This document shows, piece by piece, positions 9,153-53,415 of a DNA stretch of 64,000 nt (the first letter of the stretch is position 1; the number at the start of each line of letters is the position of its first letter). Position numbers and translations under genes: made by a program. The DNA comes from a bacterium (GTDB lineage: Bacteria > Bacteroidota > Ignavibacteria > Kapaibacteriales > UBA7675), in the NCBI GenBank assembly GCA_030430495.1, contig JAUIKM010000001.1, positions 202,447 to 266,446 on the forward strand, written 5' to 3'. The notes under the pieces were generated by a model. It saw only the letters and a program-made list of their open reading frames with translations. It did no database searches and had not been told where the DNA came from.

Positions 9153-9722
9153 GACTGAATCGTTGTCGGGACAGGGACTGTAACATTCTCACAAAGGCAT
9201 CGCCGCTATTTCATGCGCGGCTCTTTTCTTTTTGTTCGTCACGCAGATAGAAGTGACAAGCATGACAAACAGGAGTACTTCTTGCAGATGATCTGTCAAC
9301 GCCAGGTCTGCATCAAACAAAACTGTCACCGGGTGCGGAGTCGGTTTTTGAGTATTATCATCAATTCGGATTCGATTATTTCCGAAACCACCTGAATGGT
9401 TTCAAGTCCCTGTTAACTTCGAACGCCACGCGGTCGGCGGATCAAAGTTTGAGACACCGTACTTTCAAAGACAAACCCACTGTCTGATCACATTGGACAC
9501 CGGCCTGCATTGCACATTCATTCGGTGATCTCGTTCAACTGCTCTCGGATTGCGATGCAAACATGGTTTGCCGATTGTCCGCGCCGGCGCCGGCTTCCGA
9601 GCGACAACTGAGCAGGCGCTGTATCCAAATCCGCAATAGAAATCATCGATTGAGAATCCTCTGGCGCCAATAGGTACTTCACCGCTCCGAACGCAAATCA
9701 ACGAAAATCCGACCGTTCAGAG

Positions 9723-9932
9723 GCGAAAACTGCCCGTTCGCGTTTTTCCGCTTTTGTGTTCGAAGTTTCATTGTCACTTTGCACGCGTGACGGCCGCACA
9801 GGTACAGGGACAAACGGAGTCAATTTTCACTTACCAGACTCGCAACAGGTAAAAGTTGCGAGGCGGCGGAGCGTGGCGGGCGGAAAAAAATGGCAGGTTG
9901 GCAGGAGGGGGTGGGGGCCCGGTTTCGGGCCT
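9723..9932. other. Conserved intergenic structured element, family A copy 1 (candidate sRNA): 5' gcgaaaactgcccgttcgcgtttttccgc ... 3' ggcaggagggggtgggggcccggtttcgggcc
   Basis: It shares ~35-nt 5' and ~40-nt 3' blocks with 45608-45842. There is an internal perfect hairpin ctcgcaac-aggtaaaa-gttgcgag. It is not adjacent to any gene start. Confidence 0.4.
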
Positions 9933-10369
9933 GAAGTCCATTTAAACCAAACTGTTTAAATCTTAATCGAAAGACAAGAGCGATGTTTCACCGATGACAG
10001 AAACAGAAGTATACTACCGACACAACTACAACTGCCATGCAAATTCAGACTCTTCGTTGTGTCTTCATCTTTCAGTGTTTCACAGATTCAAACAATATTC
10101 AACAACTGAATCATTGGAAGTTTGCTCGTTCTTCACAACGACAGTTCGTCGACTCCACAATTTTCAACGCGGATCAACCAACTGTTTTATGCTGACTTTT
10201 TGCTCAAACCGGCTGCGCACATTTTTACATTGTGACCGTTTGGAACACATTCCAGACCGTTGGACAACAAAATCAACTACGTTCAATTTTTTGCCGTGGG
10301 AAAGGCGCTGAAGTTTAACTATGCTTGTTATTGCGACGCGCAGGCATGCAACGCGTCGCTCCGCGGACA

Positions 10370-10495
10370 AGACTCTAAAAAATCTGCACTGAAGCAGGGT
10401 GGGAGGAGTGCGTCTGATAGCGGAGGAATTACACCGTGGCGGCGGCGGGGTGGCCCCCTGGATCAAGCCGGAAGTACGCCCAAACCTCAACACCG
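10370..10495. repeat. Dispersed conserved intergenic element, family B copy 1 (core atctgcactgaagcagggtgggaggagtgcgt...gtggcggcggcgggg...ccggaagtacgcccaaa)
   Basis: About 105 nt nearly identical to the copies at 31468-31640 and 52902-53070. Confidence 0.6.
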
Positions 10496-10610
10496 GCTCC
10501 CAGGCATCCCTCTAAACCATTGCCCCACAAGCACTTACAGCCTTCGACCAATCACATCTTTCCACCACATTCGCAGCTTCAACCTCAAAATAATCGCACC
10601 ACGCAACGGT

Positions 10611-11732
10611 TTACTGCTTCAACTTCTCAACCTGATACACCAGCAGCTCGTCCGACTTGCCGTGAACATTCACCGGCTCCCAGGCATGTGCTTCGACCTT
10701 GTCCCTGATCTTGTCGAACACGCGTTCGTGAACCAATATCGCGTTGTGATGTTTCTTCGTCAATGTCTCTATTCGTTTACCGGTGTTTACCGTATCGCCC
10801 GTAATCGAAAACTCGATCCGGTCCTCGGAGCCGAGATTTCCCGCGACCACTTCGCCCGAGTTAATACCGATGCCGATGGCAAAGGGACGCCCGAACGCTG
10901 CGCCATACGTCTGGTCCAGCTCCCCAATGCGCTCCAGCATTTCCAGCGCGCACAGTACAGCTTTTAATTCGTTGTTGTACGTCGGCATTAAAGCGCCGAA
11001 GGAGGCAAATACTTCGTCGCCGACGAACTGGTTGACCGTGCCGTCGTGGCGTTTAACACACTCGCTCATTAAACGGTAGTAGTGATTCAGGCAGGCGACG
11101 ACTTCCTTGGGCGAGGAGCGTTCACTGAAACGCGTGAAGCCGCGAATATCGCAGAACAGCACGGCGACGTCGCGCAGCTCGCCTTCAAAAATCGAATCTT
11201 CACTCGTTGACAGCGCTTTTTGTACAACTTCCTGCGGCACGTAGCGCTCAAACAGACGCAGCGTTTTTTCCTGCTCTTCGACTTTTTGCCGCAGATCGCG
11301 CACCAGCTGTTTATTGCGCTGCTGCAGGCCGTACAGGTGAAACGCATTTTCAATTGTCATGCGCAGTTCCGTTTCGTCCCAGGGTTTGGTGACGTAGCGA
11401 AATACGCGCCCGGTGTTGATGGCGCTGATGATGGCTTCAACATCGCTGAAACCCGTCAGAACCATGCGCACCGTGTCCGGATACGAGGGAATAATGTGTT
11501 CGAGAAATTGAACGCCGGTCATTTCCGGCATGCGCTGATCCGTGATGATCAACGCCACGTCCCGCGTCTTCAGGAGTTCAATCGCCTCGCGCGCGCTGTT
11601 GGCGGTAAGAATATTGTAGTCGCGCCGGAAAGCCGCCTTGAATGAAACGAGGTTCTGGTGTTCGTCATCGACGTAGAGAATGGCCGGGAGATCTCTGCGG
11701 GATTTGTTCATGTGCCTCTGTCCAGTGTACAT
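10611..11732 (-). CDS. Response-regulator receiver domain fused to class III nucleotidyl (adenylate/guanylate) cyclase domain
   Basis: REC: ILYVDDEHQNLVSF...ALIITDQRMPEMTG. Cyclase CHD: FCDIRGFTRFSE...FVGDEVFASFGA...GINSGEVVAGNLGSEDRIEFSITGDTVNTGKRIE. Possible start at MNKSRR (11711). Confidence 0.85.
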   Translation of the reverse strand: MYTGQRHMNKSRRDLPAILYVDDEHQNLVSFKAAFRRDYNILTANSAREAIELLKTRDVALIITDQRMPEMTGVQFLEHIIPSYPDTVRMVLTGFSDVEAIISAINTGRVFRYVTKPWDETELRMTIENAFHLYGLQQRNKQLVRDLRQKVEEQEKTLRLFERYVPQEVVQKALSTSEDSIFEGELRDVAVLFCDIRGFTRFSERSSPKEVVACLNHYYRLMSECVKRHDGTVNQFVGDEVFASFGALMPTYNNELKAVLCALEMLERIGELDQTYGAAFGRPFAIGIGINSGEVVAGNLGSEDRIEFSITGDTVNTGKRIETLTKKHHNAILVHERVFDKIRDKVEAHAWEPVNVHGKSDELLVYQVEKLKQ

Positions 11733-31087: not shown

Positions 31088-31467
31088 CCGCGCGCGACTC
31101 ACTTAAACATATCTCTGTTTAACCCTGATGACTTTTTTGTTAACCATCGGGTGCGAAACGCCGATTCATTGCGGGAGAAGTCTGCGGCGCTCCGCGCCGC
31201 CTTGTCGGCGGGCTGGAAGCAGCCGAGTCTGTTTTCCAGCCGGGAAACCTGAATGCCGGTAGTCCAGTTAATCCACATAAAAACATTGAGATCCGGATTG
31301 GATCTATTGCACACCGAACTGCCGCGACGTGATTGTCCTGTGCACGTAATTCCACGAAATGATGTCCGTTTAACAGCGAAAATCAACCGTTCACACAGAT
31401 TTCCGGCTACGTTCAGTTTTTCAGCACTTGAATTGAAAGATGTTGCTTGTATACTGCAGGCGATAGA

Positions 31468-31640
31468 TCGCGCGCCGGCAGCGAGAATCCGCGACCGAAT
31501 GACTCAAAAAAATCTGCACTGATGCAGGGTGGGAGGAGTGCGTTTGAGCGTGGAGGTATCACCCGTGGCGGCGGCGGGGAGGTCCCCTGATCTAGCCGGA
31601 AGTACGCCCAAAAATGTTCAAGCTCCCGCTCAACACAAAC
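31468..31640. repeat. Dispersed conserved intergenic element, family B copy 2 (long form with shared 40-nt 5' extension cgcgcgccggcagcgagRatccgcgaccgaatgactc)
   Basis: Near-identical to 52902-53070 over ~165 nt and to 10370-10495 over ~105 nt. Confidence 0.6.
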
Positions 31641-31956
31641 AAACGCCCGCACAGCCACCTATACCGCCCGCTGATCGACTCTCTCAGTTTCACCGGACAA
31701 CGCGGCGTTCAAAATCTGCACCTCACCCGAACGGCCGGTCGTTCGCGATTAACTCCGCGACAAAACCTGCGAGCGTCTCGTTGGTTCCGACGTCCGGACA
31801 TACCTGAGCGATGCCGAAGCTCCGGCGCAGATGAAAAAGGCGCTACAGCGGCCGAGACACAAACGCGAATACATCAAACGCGATGACCCATTCCCTTAAT
31901 CAATTGATTTGAACGCGTCGCCGACCCGGGGCGCGGGGGATTTATGTGTTGCGTTG

Positions 31957-38996: not shown

Positions 38997-39740
38997 TTTT
39001 TTATGAATTCTCTTGTTAGTCGCGCGGTGATCGGGACTGTGTCGCCGCGCTGTTTCGGGTAGTACCGCCGCAAACGCTTAACACACTGTTGGACCTCGTT
39101 CATCCGCCGCTGGTGACCGTTCACACCGATTGTACTTGACAACGAGCGCACAATTTTGTAAATCAGAAGCCGCAAAACACAGGTCTCCACCGCACGTGGC
39201 CCGCTTGAAATCCTGATGGCGAACGACGCAGCGCAACACCCGGCGTGACCTGCGCATCGGTGGACCTCTAACATACATCTCAGCCTGGAACCCACGTTAT
39301 GTTGCATACATCAAACCAACAAAGCCTTGACGGCGAATCGAACGTCCGCAGGATCATCAGTCCAAATTCCGACCAGAATCACATCATAACCTCTATACGC
39401 GGCCGCCGCAGTACCGGCTTTCTGTTGACAAGGCGCAATGCCGACGGTTTGCTGACTACGAACTATCACCTGCGTGACGAACAAGGAAATGTCAGGAAAG
39501 GGCGCGTGGATCAGCAGGCGTCGGACGTAACGTCACCGCCACGCCAATCCGGATCAGATCCCGCGGGGGGAATGAACAGGCAAGAATTTTCGTAACTTGA
39601 TCTCGGTACAGATTCTTTGCGATTGAGTCGTGGCGACAGTGCGGAGTAACAGTCGTATCCGCGTTGCCGTTGTGTGTTTTGATTCCCTGGCTCGATTTTT
39701 GAGCAGTTGCAGCTTTTCGACCGAAGCGGTACATACCTGA

Positions 39741-41639
39741 ATGCGGGACAACGGGCACTACCTGACTGTGGATTCGGCTCTTGCGCGGGCCGAAGTGTTG
39801 CTTGCATCGGAGGACCTTGCGTCCGCCGAGAACATGGCGGCGCACGCCCTGCGTTCACACACCGCGGCATCACCCGCCACCGAAGACCGCATATCCCACG
39901 TGCGCACTCAGGCTCGCATCCTGCTGGTTATCAGCCGTTGTCGACGTCGCAACGACTACAAGGCCGGCTTTGATCTGATGCGCGACATTTGCAATCTCTA
40001 CACATCAATCGGTCGCCGCGATGAAGCGGTCGAAGTCCTCAGGTCCGAGGCGCAACTCATTGAAAAATTTGGTGATACGGAGATTGTCTCCAGTTATTAC
40101 GCTCTGCTTCTGCAGATTCTGACCGAGCTGGACGACCGCGAGACGCTCACTCGAATTCATCTGAAAGCCGGTAATTTTGTCTTTAACCGCGGGCGGTATC
40201 CCGAGTCACGCGCGCACTACGTAGCGGCCCTGAAACTGGCGCGCGACAACCAGTTCGTCCGTCTGGAAGCCGACGCCCACCTCAACATGGGCAACGTTCA
40301 TTGGGCCGGCGGCGATTACGACGAGGCCCTCCAATGTTATCTGCAGGCGGAAGAACACTACAGTCGAATCGGCGAAATACGCGCCCGCGGCGATGTGTAT
40401 AACAATGTCGGTGCGATCTACCTTTACCAGGGCGAATACGCGCTTGTCCTCGAATATTTCCTCAAGGCCCTCAACATCCGCCAGGAAGCGGGCGACTGGA
40501 AACGCGTCGCCGGCTCGCTGCTGAACATCGGCAACGTGTATTTTCACCTGGGGCACGAGGCTTCCGCTTTTGAATACTACCTGCAGAGTAAAAATCTCTA
40601 CGAACGGCACGACGACCGTCCCGGTCTGGCCGAGTTGCTGGTCAATATCGGGGCGGTGTACGAACGCACCAATAACCGCGATCTGGCGCTGCAAGCTTAT
40701 CGCAAAAGCGTTGAACTGCGCAGGGAATGCGGACTGGAAGCGCTGCTGGCCACAACACTGATCAATATTGCCATTGTTCACATGAACAGCGGCGACTACC
40801 AAAGCGCCGTGGAGCACGCGCAGCAGGCGCTGGCGAAAGCGCGGGAGAACAATGATCTGCGCGTGCAGAGCTACGCCATCCATTGCATCGGCGAAGCCAA
40901 AATGAAAAGCGGCGAGCGCCGCGCCGCGCGCGAGCATCTGGAACAGGCGCTCGAAATCCGGCGGCGGCTGGGATACCGCTCCGGCGAGGCCGAAACGCTG
41001 AATGCCATCGCCGAACTGGAAATGATCGAAGACGATCCGGAATCCGCGCTGTCAACAATAGATGAGGCGCTTCTGACCGCGCGCGAGCTGCACGAAAAAC
41101 CGCGCGAACTGGAGCTCCTGCTCAAATCCGCGCGCTGCCGCGAGCAATGCGGCCGGCTGCGCGAAGCTCTGGACGATCACCACAAAGCCAATGAATTGCG
41201 AACGCAGATCGAACGCGACAAAAACAGTCAGCTGCTCACAAACCTGCAGGTGGCGCATCAGATGGAAGACATGCGGCGCAACAAAGACGGCGCTCACCGG
41301 CGCGTGCAGGAGCTGGAACAGGAGATCGGCGCGCTGGAGACACAACGGCGTGCATTGGAAGCGCGCGAGCGGGACCGCAGCGAGTCCTTGCGCGTCATCT
41401 CACACGACCTGCGCAAGTCGCTCAAGAACATCAGCGACGCGCTGCGCCGCCAACCGGAGTCCGTGGAAACCGGCCGAACGACGGCGGCGGGAAAGGACAA
41501 TCGCCATCTGGCCGAGTCGATTCGGCAGACGGGCAAGGTGGTGGCCGGACTGGAAGAACTGTTGATTCCGCCTGTCGCAACCGGCGACAATGGCCTGGAT
41601 GAAAGCGACCGAATTGACACAAAACAAAAAAAGTCTTAA
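39741..41639 (+). CDS. TPR-repeat protein with C-terminal coiled coil and HisKA-like DHp box (RVISHDLRKSLKNIS) but no ATPase domain
   Basis: Multiple TPR units (YNNVGAIYLYQGEYALVLEYFLKALNI..., LLNIGNVYFHLGHEASAFEYYLQS...). An H-box-like motif sits ~70 aa before the stop. There is no HATPase_c, and there are only 130 nt before the next gene. Confidence 0.75.
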   Translation: MRDNGHYLTVDSALARAEVLLASEDLASAENMAAHALRSHTAASPATEDRISHVRTQARILLVISRCRRRNDYKAGFDLMRDICNLYTSIGRRDEAVEVLRSEAQLIEKFGDTEIVSSYYALLLQILTELDDRETLTRIHLKAGNFVFNRGRYPESRAHYVAALKLARDNQFVRLEADAHLNMGNVHWAGGDYDEALQCYLQAEEHYSRIGEIRARGDVYNNVGAIYLYQGEYALVLEYFLKALNIRQEAGDWKRVAGSLLNIGNVYFHLGHEASAFEYYLQSKNLYERHDDRPGLAELLVNIGAVYERTNNRDLALQAYRKSVELRRECGLEALLATTLINIAIVHMNSGDYQSAVEHAQQALAKARENNDLRVQSYAIHCIGEAKMKSGERRAAREHLEQALEIRRRLGYRSGEAETLNAIAELEMIEDDPESALSTIDEALLTARELHEKPRELELLLKSARCREQCGRLREALDDHHKANELRTQIERDKNSQLLTNLQVAHQMEDMRRNKDGAHRRVQELEQEIGALETQRRALEARERDRSESLRVISHDLRKSLKNISDALRRQPESVETGRTTAAGKDNRHLAESIRQTGKVVAGLEELLIPPVATGDNGLDESDRIDTKQKKS

Positions 41640-41772: not shown

Positions 41773-42396
41773 ATGCGTAAACTCATCATTTTGGCATTGG
41801 CGATGACGCTGGCTCTGCCCGCTGCGTTCAATGCACAAACCTCGGGTAAATCGAAGAATATGCTCACAGCTCTGATCAAGACAACTGCCGGCGATATCAA
41901 GCTGGAATTGTACGGCAAGGAAACGCCGCTTACCGTAGCGAATTTTGTCAACCTGGCGCGCCGCGGATACTACGACGGCATCGTTTTCCATCGCGTTATC
42001 GCCAACTTCATGATCCAGGGCGGCGACCCGACGGGCACCGGCAGCGGCGGCCCCGGTTATCGTTTTGAAGATGAATTTGTGCCGCAGCTGCGTCACAACA
42101 GCGCCGGCATCCTGTCCATGGCCAATGCGGGCCCGGGCACAAACGGCAGCCAGTTTTTCATTACACACCTGCCCACGCCGCACCTTGACGATCATCATAC
42201 GGTCTTCGGCAAAGTTGTGGATGAAGCGAGCCAGGACGCGGTCAACGCCGTTCGCCAGGGCGCTAAAATCGTTTCGGTGACGATTGAAGGCGATGTTCCG
42301 GCCGAAGTCAAAGCAGTTCAAAAACGCGTTGACGAGTGGAACAAAGTCCTCGATCAGAAATTCCCGGACAAACTGAAGCCGGCGACGCCGCTCTGA
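41773..42396 (+). CDS. Cyclophilin-type peptidyl-prolyl cis-trans isomerase, periplasmic (PpiA-like) with signal peptide
   Basis: [31 protein letters not shown]...[36 protein letters not shown]-terminal [22 protein letters not shown]. Confidence 0.9.
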
Positions 42397-42435
42397 TAGT
42401 TTGAGTCGCGGGTGCTGTAGATACCCGCACCAGTC

Positions 42436-42483
42436 AAAACAACAAAGTCCCGCAGCATTGAAGCTGCGGGACTTTGTTGTTTT
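42436..42483. terminator. 18-bp perfect hairpin acaacaaagtcccgcagc-attgaa-gctgcgggactttgttgt with flanking A/T runs, between convergent cyclophilin and LTXXQ genes
   Basis: Inverted repeat read directly. It is preceded by a second short hairpin gcgggt-gctgtagat-acccgc. Confidence 0.65.
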
Positions 42484-45479: not shown

Positions 45480-45607
45480 ATTCGGGCACACTTCTGCACA
45501 CCGTCGTATGCAAAATACGGATGCAAACGGGACTCAATTTTGGGTCCCGTTTTTTGTTTAAGCGCCGTGCGGGCGACCGCTTGTACACGTGAACGGCTAC
45601 GTTCATG

Positions 45608-45842
45608 CGCGAAAACTGCCCGTTGGCGTTTTTCCGCTTGTGTGGCCGGCGACGTGAGTGCATGTTACCGGGGTCGAACCTGCCGGAGGGTTCGGCCGCG
45701 CCACGCCGGGGAAGCCGCAAGGAGGCAGGCTCTGCTCAAAAAAAATACCGCGTCGCACGGGGCGGATGGACCGTGGTTTGATGTCGAAAAAAGTGGGAAA
45801 AGTGGCAAGGCGGAGGAGGGGGTGGGGCCCATTTATTGGGCC
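45608..45842. other. Conserved intergenic structured element, family A copy 2 (5' gcgaaaactgcccgttggcgtttttccgc ... 3' ggcggaggagggggtggggcccatttattgggcc)
   Basis: Shares 5' and 3' blocks with 9723-9932. Its internal imperfect hairpin ggtcgaacc...ggttcggcc and A-run are placed as in copy 1. Convergent intergenic location. Confidence 0.4.
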
Positions 45843-52518: not shown

Positions 52519-52901
52519 GAGTTCGCTGGGGCGGAGGCGTCGGCAGGTGATTCGGACTATTCCCTCGGCAGCGACAATGTCAGTTCAACAAGCCGCGGTC
52601 AAAATGACTGCGGCTTTTTTGTGCCCGCACCTCACGGGCATCGAATAATGGCAGCACCAGTGGACAAGCCACGCTACCTGAAAATCCCGGGCGGTGAATA
52701 GTCCGCACAATCGTTATTCCGATGTTTTCGCGCAGAGATAAAAGCTGGCACCGGGCGCGTTTGCGATGACCTGTAAACGCATTGCGATAGACTTGACTAC
52801 CGTTGGCAACGGAATTTGCTACGTTTAACCACGTTCTGGCGCCGCTCAGTTTTTTACAGCTTGCGGAGTGGCCTGCGCTGATTAAACTGTCGCTGATGAC
52901 T

Positions 52902-53070
52902 CGCGCGCCGGCAGCGAGGATCCGCGACCGAATGACTCAAAAGAATCTGCACTGAAGCAGGGTGGGAGGAGTGCGTTTGAGCGTGGAGGTACGTCACGTG
53001 GCGGCGGCGGGGAGGTCCCCTGATCTAGCGGGAAGTACGTCAAAAATTTCGATCACTCCCGCTCAACACC
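52902..53070. repeat. Dispersed conserved intergenic element, family B copy 3 (long form)
   Basis: Near-identical to 31468-31640, including the 40-nt 5' extension and the 3' ctcccgctcaacac. Confidence 0.6.
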
Positions 53071-53415
53071 TCAAACCGGCCGTTCAAGCCATGTTAACCA
53101 GCGATCATTCACATCAGCCCCAAAGCCTGAAAACTCCGCACCAAATTTCTTCAATAACTCAAAGCGATTTGAAATTGCCCCCCCAACGGAGCCAATTTCT
53201 GAATGAATGCCCGAGTTTTTCAGTTTAACGTGCCGGTGTTCAAAACAGACTCACACACATGGGAACCCGGAGCCTTCCGACCGACCTGACGTTTAACGAC
53301 CGGACGACGCACTTGTGACTCAATGACTGAAAGCCTGACGTTGCCTGTGCGATGACCACTGTTGTACGGACTTTCCGCCGGCGGACTTCAAACAGACTCG
53401 CATCTTTCAACTCGA

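Follow-up and report, generated by a model that had tools for sequence, protein, structure and literature searches.

What kind of genetic element recurs, almost letter for letter, in three separate intergenic regions of the 64-kb stretch of DNA analysed here (the window)? The earlier note on this sequence had described a repeat of 105-170 nt with a near-identical core and a variable segment of about 10 nt, and had leaned towards a small-RNA gene or a regulatory module rather than a miniature transposable element (MITE). The reading that we favour, with slightly better than even confidence, goes further and is drawn from sequence comparisons: the copies would form a new family of co-regulated sibling small-RNA (sRNA) genes, read from the + strand under LytTR-type promoters and, having no intrinsic terminator, ended by Rho-type termination.

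The repeated unit and its copies

Sequence search and alignment over the 64-kb window confirmed three copies, all in + orientation, with the 20-mer GCAGGGTGGGAGGAGTGCGT starting at 10394, 31524 and 52957 (three occurrences against 0.01 expected by chance) and the block CGTGGCGGCGGCGGGG starting at 10435, 31564 and 52997. The alignment also bore out the near-identity of the core and the variable segment of about 10 nt, but the size first given proved too small, since the conserved unit measures about 400 bp: it opens about 160 bp 5' of the core, where three phased boxes lie next to a promoter, and extends 3' into a C-rich tail. Additional similarity upstream and downstream had been ascribed to copies 2 and 3 only; it was recovered for those two, but copy 1 also has the upstream module and a shortened version of the downstream one.

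The order of parts within the unit is as follows. Three 9-bp boxes in direct orientation (NCCGTTYAR) are followed by a T-run, a weak -35 and a -10-like TAnnCT hexamer. A few bases past the -10 stands P1, a GC-rich 5' hairpin whose loop contains, in all copies, one of two palindromic hexamers (GCATGC or GCCGGC); an A-run leads from it to P3, a hairpin of 4-5 bp (CUGCA/UGCAG), which is followed by the invariant stretch GGGUGGGAGGAGUGCGU and then by the variable segment. After the latter come a GG-N-GG-N-GG-N-GGGG run, a GGGG(C)/(G)CCCC hairpin, a ...CGYCCAAA sequence and the tail. Both small hairpins already noticed are thus present, and in related copies their stems are kept while the loops differ. 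The boundaries of the copies are gradual, the flanking modules being conserved at the motif level only. The parts of the three copies in the window are located as follows.

10235-10286, + strand: copy 1, boxes ACCGTTTGG (10235), ACCGTTGGA (10256) and TACGTTCAA (10278), 21 and 22 bp apart; putative LytTR-type activator sites
10287-10325, + strand: copy 1, promoter, with T-run, weak -35 TGGGAA at about 10297 and -10-like TATGCT at 10320-10325; box 3 starts 42 bp before the -10
10332-10485, + strand: copy 1, predicted RNA; covariance-model match 10330-10484 (61.5 bits), 5' end placed from the promoter
10333-10359, 10384-10397 and 10394-10413, + strand: copy 1, P1 (loop GCATGC), P3 (after the A-run) and core of the predicted RNA
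10436-10450 and 10447-10458, + strand: copy 1, G-run and GGGG..CCCC hairpin of the predicted RNA
10486-10610, + strand: copy 1, C-rich, G-poor tail (G 11%, C 39% over 120 nt from about 10496), ending at the stop codon of a convergent cyclase gene
31365-31416, + strand: copy 2, boxes TCCGTTTAA (31365), ACCGTTCAC (31386) and TACGTTCAG (31408)
31417-31455, + strand: copy 2, promoter, with T-run, -35 TTGAAT at 31428-31433, 16-bp spacer and -10 TATACT at 31450-31455; box 3 to -35, 11 bp
31462-31613, + strand: copy 2, predicted RNA, with P3 (31514-31527), core (31524-31543), G-run (31564-31579) and GGGGAGGTCCCC (31576-31587)
31614-31760, + strand: copy 2, C-rich tail with box CCCGCTCAA (31625) and a weaker box (31646), in the same 21-bp lattice and orientation
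52799-52849, + strand: copy 3, boxes ACCGTTGGC (52799), TACGTTTAA (52820) and GCCGCTCAG (52841)
52850-52888, + strand: copy 3, promoter, with T-run, -35-like TTGCGG at 52861-52866 and -10-like TAAACT at 52883-52888
52895-53046, + strand: copy 3, predicted RNA, with P3 (52947-52960), core (52957-52976) and G-run (52997-53012)
53047-53200, + strand: copy 3, C-rich tail with boxes CCCGCTCAA (53058) and GCCGTTCAA (53079), 21 bp apart

The ParE protein encoded in the window is 98% identical to that of the metagenome-assembled genome (MAG) GCA_964445695.1 (CAYULF01), and over 17 kb the two DNAs agree in gene order and show about 89% nucleotide identity, which indicates that they come from sister species. 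The record of this MAG carries the label 'Hyphomicrobiales', but the next named ParE matches (about 73%) are from Hymenobacter, Pontibacter and Caldithrix. The cyclase gene has homologs that bear Bacteroidota names, and among the proteins encoded in the window are one sorted by T9SS and TonB-dependent receptors of the CarboxypepD_reg type.

When a collection of genomes was scanned with a 17-mer from the core, 17 copies were found in the MAG, all other matches being chance or coding ones, and synteny revealed two further MAG copies with a variant core, so that the sister species holds at least 19 copies on 13 contigs. This agrees with the expectation of many copies genome-wide and rules out a local segmental duplication; some clustering is seen (three copies in the 64 kb of the window, four on one 104-kb MAG contig). 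Two subtypes, separated by indels of 1, 2 and 16 nt, can be told apart: type A comprises 15 MAG copies, which have 16 extra nt, and type B the three window copies together with those on L021, L046 and L129. The same 17-mer matched 81 loci in a metagenome scan, all of them chance or coding matches and none with the flanks of the family, and a scan of viral contigs gave no copies; a covariance model built from 15 MAG copies detected no extra copy in the window or in two loci, L045 and L136, of a relative whose ParE is 77% identical. Within the reach of these searches, members of the family occur in a single genus-level lineage only. Five short-read contigs (L047 and L130-L133) break off within the element, which is what a repeat that disrupts assembly should cause.

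Two of the three window copies have syntenic orthologs. That of copy 2 lies at L046:16899-17066 of the MAG, and copy 3 has counterparts at L129:12616-12774 of the MAG (- strand) and, cut by a contig end, on L131 of a third species, whose TonB-dependent receptor is 71% identical to that of the window. From box 1 to the first tail box the ortholog of copy 2 is about 92% identical, compared with about 55-65% in the flanking intergenic DNA (a rough estimate, by eye), and the ortholog of copy 3 is likewise better conserved than its flanks, with box 1 retained amid differing sequence. The orthologs differ at 4 of 70 core positions, and two of the core changes set both MAG copies apart from both window copies, a pattern that points to concerted evolution or to co-adaptation within each genome. 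Copy 1, together with a neighbouring unit at 9712, lies within a stretch of about 1.25 kb that is missing from the MAG, where the flanking genes stand 215 bp apart; units are thus gained or lost over time.

The promoter module

The upstream boxes keep a fixed register, starting at -85/-84, -64/-63 and -42 relative to the TAnnCT hexamer in 22 of 22 copies. Measured from start to start, the first spacing is 21 bp in every one of the 22, and the second is 22 bp in 18 and 21 bp in four. Promoters activated by LytTR response regulators carry imperfect 9-bp direct repeats of the consensus [TA][AC][CA]GTTN[AG][TG], with gaps of 12-13 bp (21-22 bp start to start) and the proximal repeat 4-11 bp, mostly 10 bp, 5' of the -35; published repeats include ACCGCTTAG and CCCGCTTGG, in arrangements such as ACCGCTTAG-12-ACCGCTTAT (PMC5600425, PMC6193735). 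When the 66 boxes of the family were compared with the consensus taken from these two papers, 8 matched exactly, 28 with one mismatch and 24 with two, so that 36 of 66 showed at most one mismatch as opposed to 4% in shuffled sequence. The -35 is weak in most copies (TTGAAT, TTGCGG and GGATAA are examples), and in copy 2 the promoter reads TTGAAT-16-TATACT with 11 bp separating box 3 from the -35. In box sequence, in spacing and in distance to the -35, the module matches, as a sequence, the published architecture of LytTR-regulated promoters, and all copies appear to be switched on by one LytTR-type regulator, which we infer from this match. A phmmer search for a LytTR protein encoded in the window or in the examined MAG loci returned receiver-domain matches only. 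The relative at 77% ParE identity encodes a Response_reg-LytTR protein.

A scan of the whole window for the box lattice, in which about two such pairs are expected by chance over both strands, located it also at three units outside the family: at 9712/9733, at 45576/45598/45619 and at 39073/39095/39116, the last followed after 11 bp by a perfect TTGACA and, 17 bp further on, by TAAATC. The occurrence of the same lattice at these units suggests that the boxes behave as transcription-factor sites with a local regulon and are not merely part of the repeat. Other assignments of the promoter were discarded. TGGCAC, which would suit a sigma-54 promoter, occurs in MAG copies, but the -12 position lacks TTGC and the motif is missing from the window copies; the Bacteroides-type TAnnTTTG -7 box does not fit the family copies; and a promoter served by the downstream boxes was ruled out because no -10 stands at the expected +42.

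Each copy would accordingly constitute a self-contained transcription unit on the + strand, its product being a non-coding RNA about 160-180 nt long. The three imperfect 9-bp direct repeats just 5' of the weak -35 would be bound by a LytTR-type response regulator, which would activate the promoter and so serve as one common on-switch, shared by all copies and by at least three other units in the window.

The predicted transcript and competing readings

An alignment of the 15 type A copies was folded with RNAalifold, which predicted seven helices. In P1, compensatory changes affect four pairs, and the observed covariation score was reached in only 4 of 500 shuffles; the remaining six helices are invariant or vary on one side, and hence have no covariation support. 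Between orthologs the P3 stem is kept while its loop has changed (CUGCACUGAUGCAG versus CUGCUGAAAAAUUGCAG; CUGAAG versus CUUUAG). Folding energies were not below those of shuffled sequences on either strand (z from -0.6 to +0.2), which makes the thermodynamic case for an RNA a weak one. As for the strand, P1 would contain 10 G-U pairs if read from the + strand and 5 if read from the - strand, and the whole structure, itself predicted on the + strand, 64 and 8, respectively.

The tail is 120-150 nt long and strongly asymmetric, with mean G of 10-20% and mean C of 31-41% between +80 and +230 in 21 copies, compared with about 25-30% G in the flanks. It carries one to three further boxes at fixed positions, in the same 21-bp lattice and the same orientation as those upstream. 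An excess of C over G fits the loading of Rho at rut sites, and the tail provides what is looked for in Rho-dependent termination, that is, at least about 80 nt of C-rich, G-poor, poorly structured RNA downstream. Since a terminator scan revealed no intrinsic terminator on the + strand after any of the three copies, transcription probably ends through Rho within this C-rich, G-poor tail. Promoter geometry, the C>G tail and the G-U counts in P1 are the features that favour the + strand.

The gene downstream of the element is convergent in 16 of 20 copies, and the upstream genes show no orientation bias. The idea that the copies might accompany particular gene classes was not borne out, because the neighbours (histidine kinases, MutS, RNase R, NadE, TonB-dependent receptors, the cyclase, TPR proteins) are functionally unrelated and show no pattern, and a functional association with them was ruled out. 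Neighbours that are unrelated and mostly convergent argue against a cis-regulatory leader and weaken the proposal that the variable 10-mer pairs with nearby mRNA leaders. The convergent bias fits stand-alone genes that are tolerated where read-through enters no co-directional gene. The same bias is also the main argument for an RNA made from the other strand.

According to that alternative, which we consider rather unlikely, the functional RNA would be a C-rich, anti-Shine-Dalgarno-like element of the - strand (CACUCCUCCCACCC, CCUCC motifs) that finishes in a small hairpin and a U-run and lies within the 3' UTR of the gene preceding it on that strand, either an sRNA derived from this 3' UTR or a terminator module. 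In 16 of 20 copies a gene on the - strand does end before the element, at a distance of 44-840 nt, but in the other four no co-directional gene precedes it. The terminator scan marked the hairpin CTGCATCAGTGCAG, with ATTTTTTT after it, as terminator-like on the - strand, although the hairpin forms just 4-5 pairs and was picked up in none of the three copies but copy 2. The succession of CUCCUCCC motifs, hairpin and U-run looks like a conventional sRNA, and pairing with an anti-Shine-Dalgarno sequence is conceivable, Shine-Dalgarno-like 4-mers being found before 8 of 32 genes. Rfam 15 gave no hits at its gathering thresholds and, at E<=10 over the whole window, nothing on the elements, and a tRNA/tmRNA search of the window found none; the best match in Rfam searches of small regions was ar14, the alphaproteobacterial 'cuckoo' sRNA family (RF02344), which is likewise multi-copy and whose loop motifs resemble the CUCCUCCC of the - strand. 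That match, however, reached 11.6 bits where the gathering score is 58.8, contained many non-standard pairs and left the structure unmatched, on what is probably the wrong strand and in another phylum. A conserved promoter on the - strand was not seen, the phased + strand promoter module of every copy would be left unexplained, and both the C>G tail and the number of G-U pairs speak for the + strand.

An RNA of the favoured kind, a + strand sRNA, would start with the GC-rich hairpin, continue through an A-rich linker to the small hairpin, and probably present as its working surface the invariant G-rich GGGUGGGAGGAGUGCGU and the GG-N-GG-N-GG-N-GGGG run, which would bind a C/U-rich RNA target, and so act in trans, or a protein. 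Within the 64-kb window no target candidates were found, and matches to the complement of the core numbered seven, three of them the copies themselves, against 3.8 +/- 2.1 expected. The tail boxes may bind the same regulator, with a roadblock, DNA looping or insulation as candidate roles. A more elaborate scheme, which we judge quite unlikely, would make each copy an inducible, self-insulating sRNA cassette in which the regulator on the downstream array and the Rho-loading tail halt polymerase before the convergent gene; read-through from the convergent genes would, in addition, leave about 16 unrelated mRNAs with the core's complement in their 3' UTRs, and G-rich RNAs pairing with these tags could co-regulate dispersed genes in trans.

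The boxes on both sides of the core also suggest a reading, unlikely in our estimate, in which the element works as DNA: two site arrays for one protein would bracket a G-rich segment of about 290 bp and assemble a nucleoprotein complex for looping, insulation or chromosome organisation, any RNA being a by-product. The same 9-mer does stand on either side in the same orientation and 21-bp lattice, lattice pairs occur nowhere else in the window at a strict threshold, and the palindromic hexamer of the P1 loop could equally be a protein site. Nevertheless, the best-conserved part is the central segment and not the boxes, the -35 and -10 hexamers are conserved at a fixed distance from the boxes, P1 shows compensatory changes, the strand asymmetry of the tail points to transcription, and the same boxes also stand before ordinary promoters at other places in the window.

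Many LytTR-controlled genes encode small peptides, and a gene for a bacteriocin- or pheromone-like precursor with a Gly-rich TRGGGG motif was weighed as a further, very unlikely reading. An RBS-like stretch, GGGAGGAG, is followed 6-7 nt later by TTG or CTG, open frames run through core and tail, several differences are synonymous or conservative in one frame (such as NIIE/DVVE and CGC/CGT/CGG), and two or three of the four changes between ortholog pairs are synonymous. Coding potential was assessed through six-frame translations, codon-position counts, dN/dS-like ratios on both strands with a column-shuffle control, and the ortholog pairs. Frame, start and stop are not common to both subtypes, one copy has an in-frame stop, the ratio of 0.61 in the best frame was matched by 167 of 300 column shuffles, the tail gave 0.92-1.05 in all frames, and G-poor sequence yields long open frames by chance. 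The coding reading was rejected because no common frame, start or stop exists and the signal does not exceed chance. Variation of period 3 in the G-run is equally explained by the GG-N-GG-N-GG-N repeats, in which only N varies.

A non-autonomous mobile element, either MITE-like or a cassette spread by recombination, is highly improbable: the copies are multiple, intergenic and somewhat clustered, and copy 1 lies in the 1.25-kb stretch absent from the sister species, with a 17-nt perfect direct repeat at its edge, but copy boundaries are gradual, copies 2 and 3 have kept their orthologous positions in two to three species, viral contigs hold no copy, and the absence of copy 1 is part of a 1.25-kb indel and not a precise excision. 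Like MITEs and Correia-type repeats, the unit is short, multi-copy, intergenic and able to carry promoters, whereas it has no terminal inverted repeats, target duplication or sharp ends, and two of three copies occupy orthologous sites across species. In agreement with the earlier note, neither terminal inverted repeats nor target-site duplications were found at the three copies, consistent duplications being lacking, and no transposase gene was annotated beside them. Identity with REP/BIME or attC sites was rejected because the unit, of about 400 bp, is asymmetric, no long inverted repeat spans it, and its boxes are direct and not inverted. The preference for a small-RNA gene or regulatory module over a MITE is thus supported by the lack of terminal repeats, of target duplications and of Rfam, REP or attC identity, by the conserved promoter-like module and by the compensatory changes in P1.

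Related systems and significance

The family is most likely undescribed and, as judged from its sequence, a member of none of the systems with which it was compared. The csRNA1-5/CiaR, Qrr1-5/LuxO and LhrC1-7/LisR systems consist of paralogous sRNA genes that each carry sites of one response regulator; they have 4-7 members, C-rich or otherwise defined seeds and Rho-independent terminators. The present family differs from them in its at least 19 members, its G-rich stretch, the lack of a terminator and the boxes on both sides.

At the agr P3 promoter of Staphylococcus aureus, AgrA, a LytTR protein, binds imperfect 9-bp direct repeats 12-13 bp apart, 5' of a weak -35, and drives RNAIII (PMC5600425). 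The box consensus, the spacing and the distance to the -35 match those of the present units, which differ in having three repeats where agr has two, at least 19 RNA genes instead of one, and a second box array 3' of the RNA. Moreover, RNAIII measures 514 nt as compared with about 170 nt for the predicted RNA, without sequence or Rfam similarity between them, and the host of the latter is Bacteroidota-like and its regulator a putative one. The FopS family of Bacteroides thetaiotaomicron consists of 14 paralogous sRNAs of about 65-70 nt that have the canonical Bacteroides sigma-ABfr promoter and terminators and bind RbpB (PMC11697453, which also lists the csRNA, Qrr and LhrC sibling families). 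FopS members resemble the present copies in being high-copy, dispersed and mostly intergenic siblings with their own promoters and a conserved seed, kept across related species of the same superphylum (PMC11697453), but no sequence relationship was detected, and the copies described here have an activator-box promoter and a G-rich conserved stretch. By analogy, the family would come closest in its working mode to the csRNA, Qrr and LhrC siblings and to AgrA-P3-RNAIII, and closest in phylogeny and copy number to FopS.

A practical consequence is that short-read assemblies of these genomes are interrupted at the repeat. The downstream box arrays and the missing terminators raise a testable question about how transcription ends beside convergent genes. 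If the favoured reading is true, the elements would represent an RNA family not described before, whose at least 19 copies per genome would rank among the highest numbers reported for sibling sRNAs and whose host lineage is known from metagenomes alone; they would provide a case of a LytTR regulator driving regulatory RNAs outside the Firmicutes, and they would define a LytTR regulon so compact that 64 kb contain at least six of its promoters.

Variable motifs within the copies

Two short motifs were compared among the three plus-strand repeat units of about 400 bp that we read as putative sRNA genes (copies 1-3):

10342-10347, 31471-31476 and 52904-52909 (plus strand): palindromic hexamer in the loop region of P1, the 5' hairpin of the predicted RNA, at the same aligned position in every copy
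10436-10450, 31564-31579 and 52997-53012 (plus strand), with L021:3800-3815, a copy outside the window: G-run

The hexamer was GCATGC in copy 1, in the type A copies (the 15 copies of the sister-species assembly GCA_964445695.1, hereafter the MAG, that carry 16 extra nt) and in L021; copies 2 and 3, like their orthologs, had GCCGGC. This palindrome may serve for dimerisation of the RNA through a kissing loop or, at the DNA level, as a protein site. Variation in the G-run was confined to the single bases separating the GG pairs (GGTGGCGGCGGGG, GGCGGCGGCGGGG and GGTGGTGGAGGGG), and the extra GGGGCGGGCGATGGGGCAGGCGGG of the type A copies is a canonical G-quadruplex motif.

Comparison with the sister species

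When L046:16978-17047 and L129 (minus strand) were compared with copies 2 and 3 of the window, the two MAG copies had in common, against both window copies, the substitutions GTGCG to GTGTG and TCTA to TCAA, a pattern that suggests concerted evolution, or co-adaptation, of the paralogs within one genome. The C-rich, G-poor tail 3' of the predicted RNA contained, in one MAG copy (L018:7720-7830), four tandem 21-nt repeats of CAACTGCACCTTCCTCGCAAT, whose period is that of the lattice of the boxes, i.e. the 9-bp direct repeats spaced at 21-22 bp that are putative LytTR-type regulator sites.

The MAG lacked a stretch of about 1.25 kb (window about 9365-10610) that contains copy 1 and a box-bearing unit at 9712, and at the MAG locus L134 the cyclase gene lies just 215 bp from the ABC ATPase gene. 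The 17-nt sequence CACCGGCTCCCAGGCAT is present twice as a perfect direct repeat, once at the 3' boundary of copy 1 (10491-10507) and once in the convergent cyclase gene, within its 3' end (10671-10687). This repeat may be a remnant of the event by which the stretch arose or was lost. The GenBank title of the MAG (CAYULF01) is "uncultured Hyphomicrobiales", a label that looks wrong because both its best protein hits and its gene content, which includes T9SS sorting domains and CarboxypepD_reg TonB-dependent receptors, indicate an affiliation with Bacteroidota or the FCB group.

Other box-bearing units in the window

Boxes were also present at three further places:

9712-9935: second kind of unit, 500 bp upstream of copy 1
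45576-45760: unit with three boxes on the same lattice, not a family member
39073-39164: textbook LytTR-type promoter, by box geometry and TTGACA/TAAATC

The first unit has boxes ACCGTTCAG at 9712 and CCCGTTCGC at 9733, then GTTTTT, followed by a G-rich sequence unlike that of the family (GGCGGCGGAGCGTGGCGGGCGG...GGAGGGGGTGGGGG) and a 3'-terminal hairpin, GGCCCGGTTTCGGGCC; it is probably a further RNA controlled by the same putative regulator as copies 1-3. The boxes of the second (ACCGCTTGT, TACGTTCAT and CCCGTTGGC) precede GTTTTTCCGC, and this unit showed 89% identity to 9714-9758 across 45 nt, its downstream part being unlike both the 9712 unit and the family.

Separately, positions 42375-42480 contain a strong hairpin, GUCCCGCAGC...GCUGCGGGAC, that resembles a terminator and has a U-run after it. 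Its match to Thr_leader was sub-threshold (28.6 bits, below the gathering score of 55), and it is probably merely an intrinsic terminator.

The promoter at 39073 is laid out as AACGCTTAA-13-CTCGTTCAT-12-ACCGTTCAC, 11 bp, TTGACA, 17 bp and TAAATC. Downstream lie an ORF (39299-39595) and then a TPR gene at 39741, and this unit would be a protein-coding member of the putative regulon.
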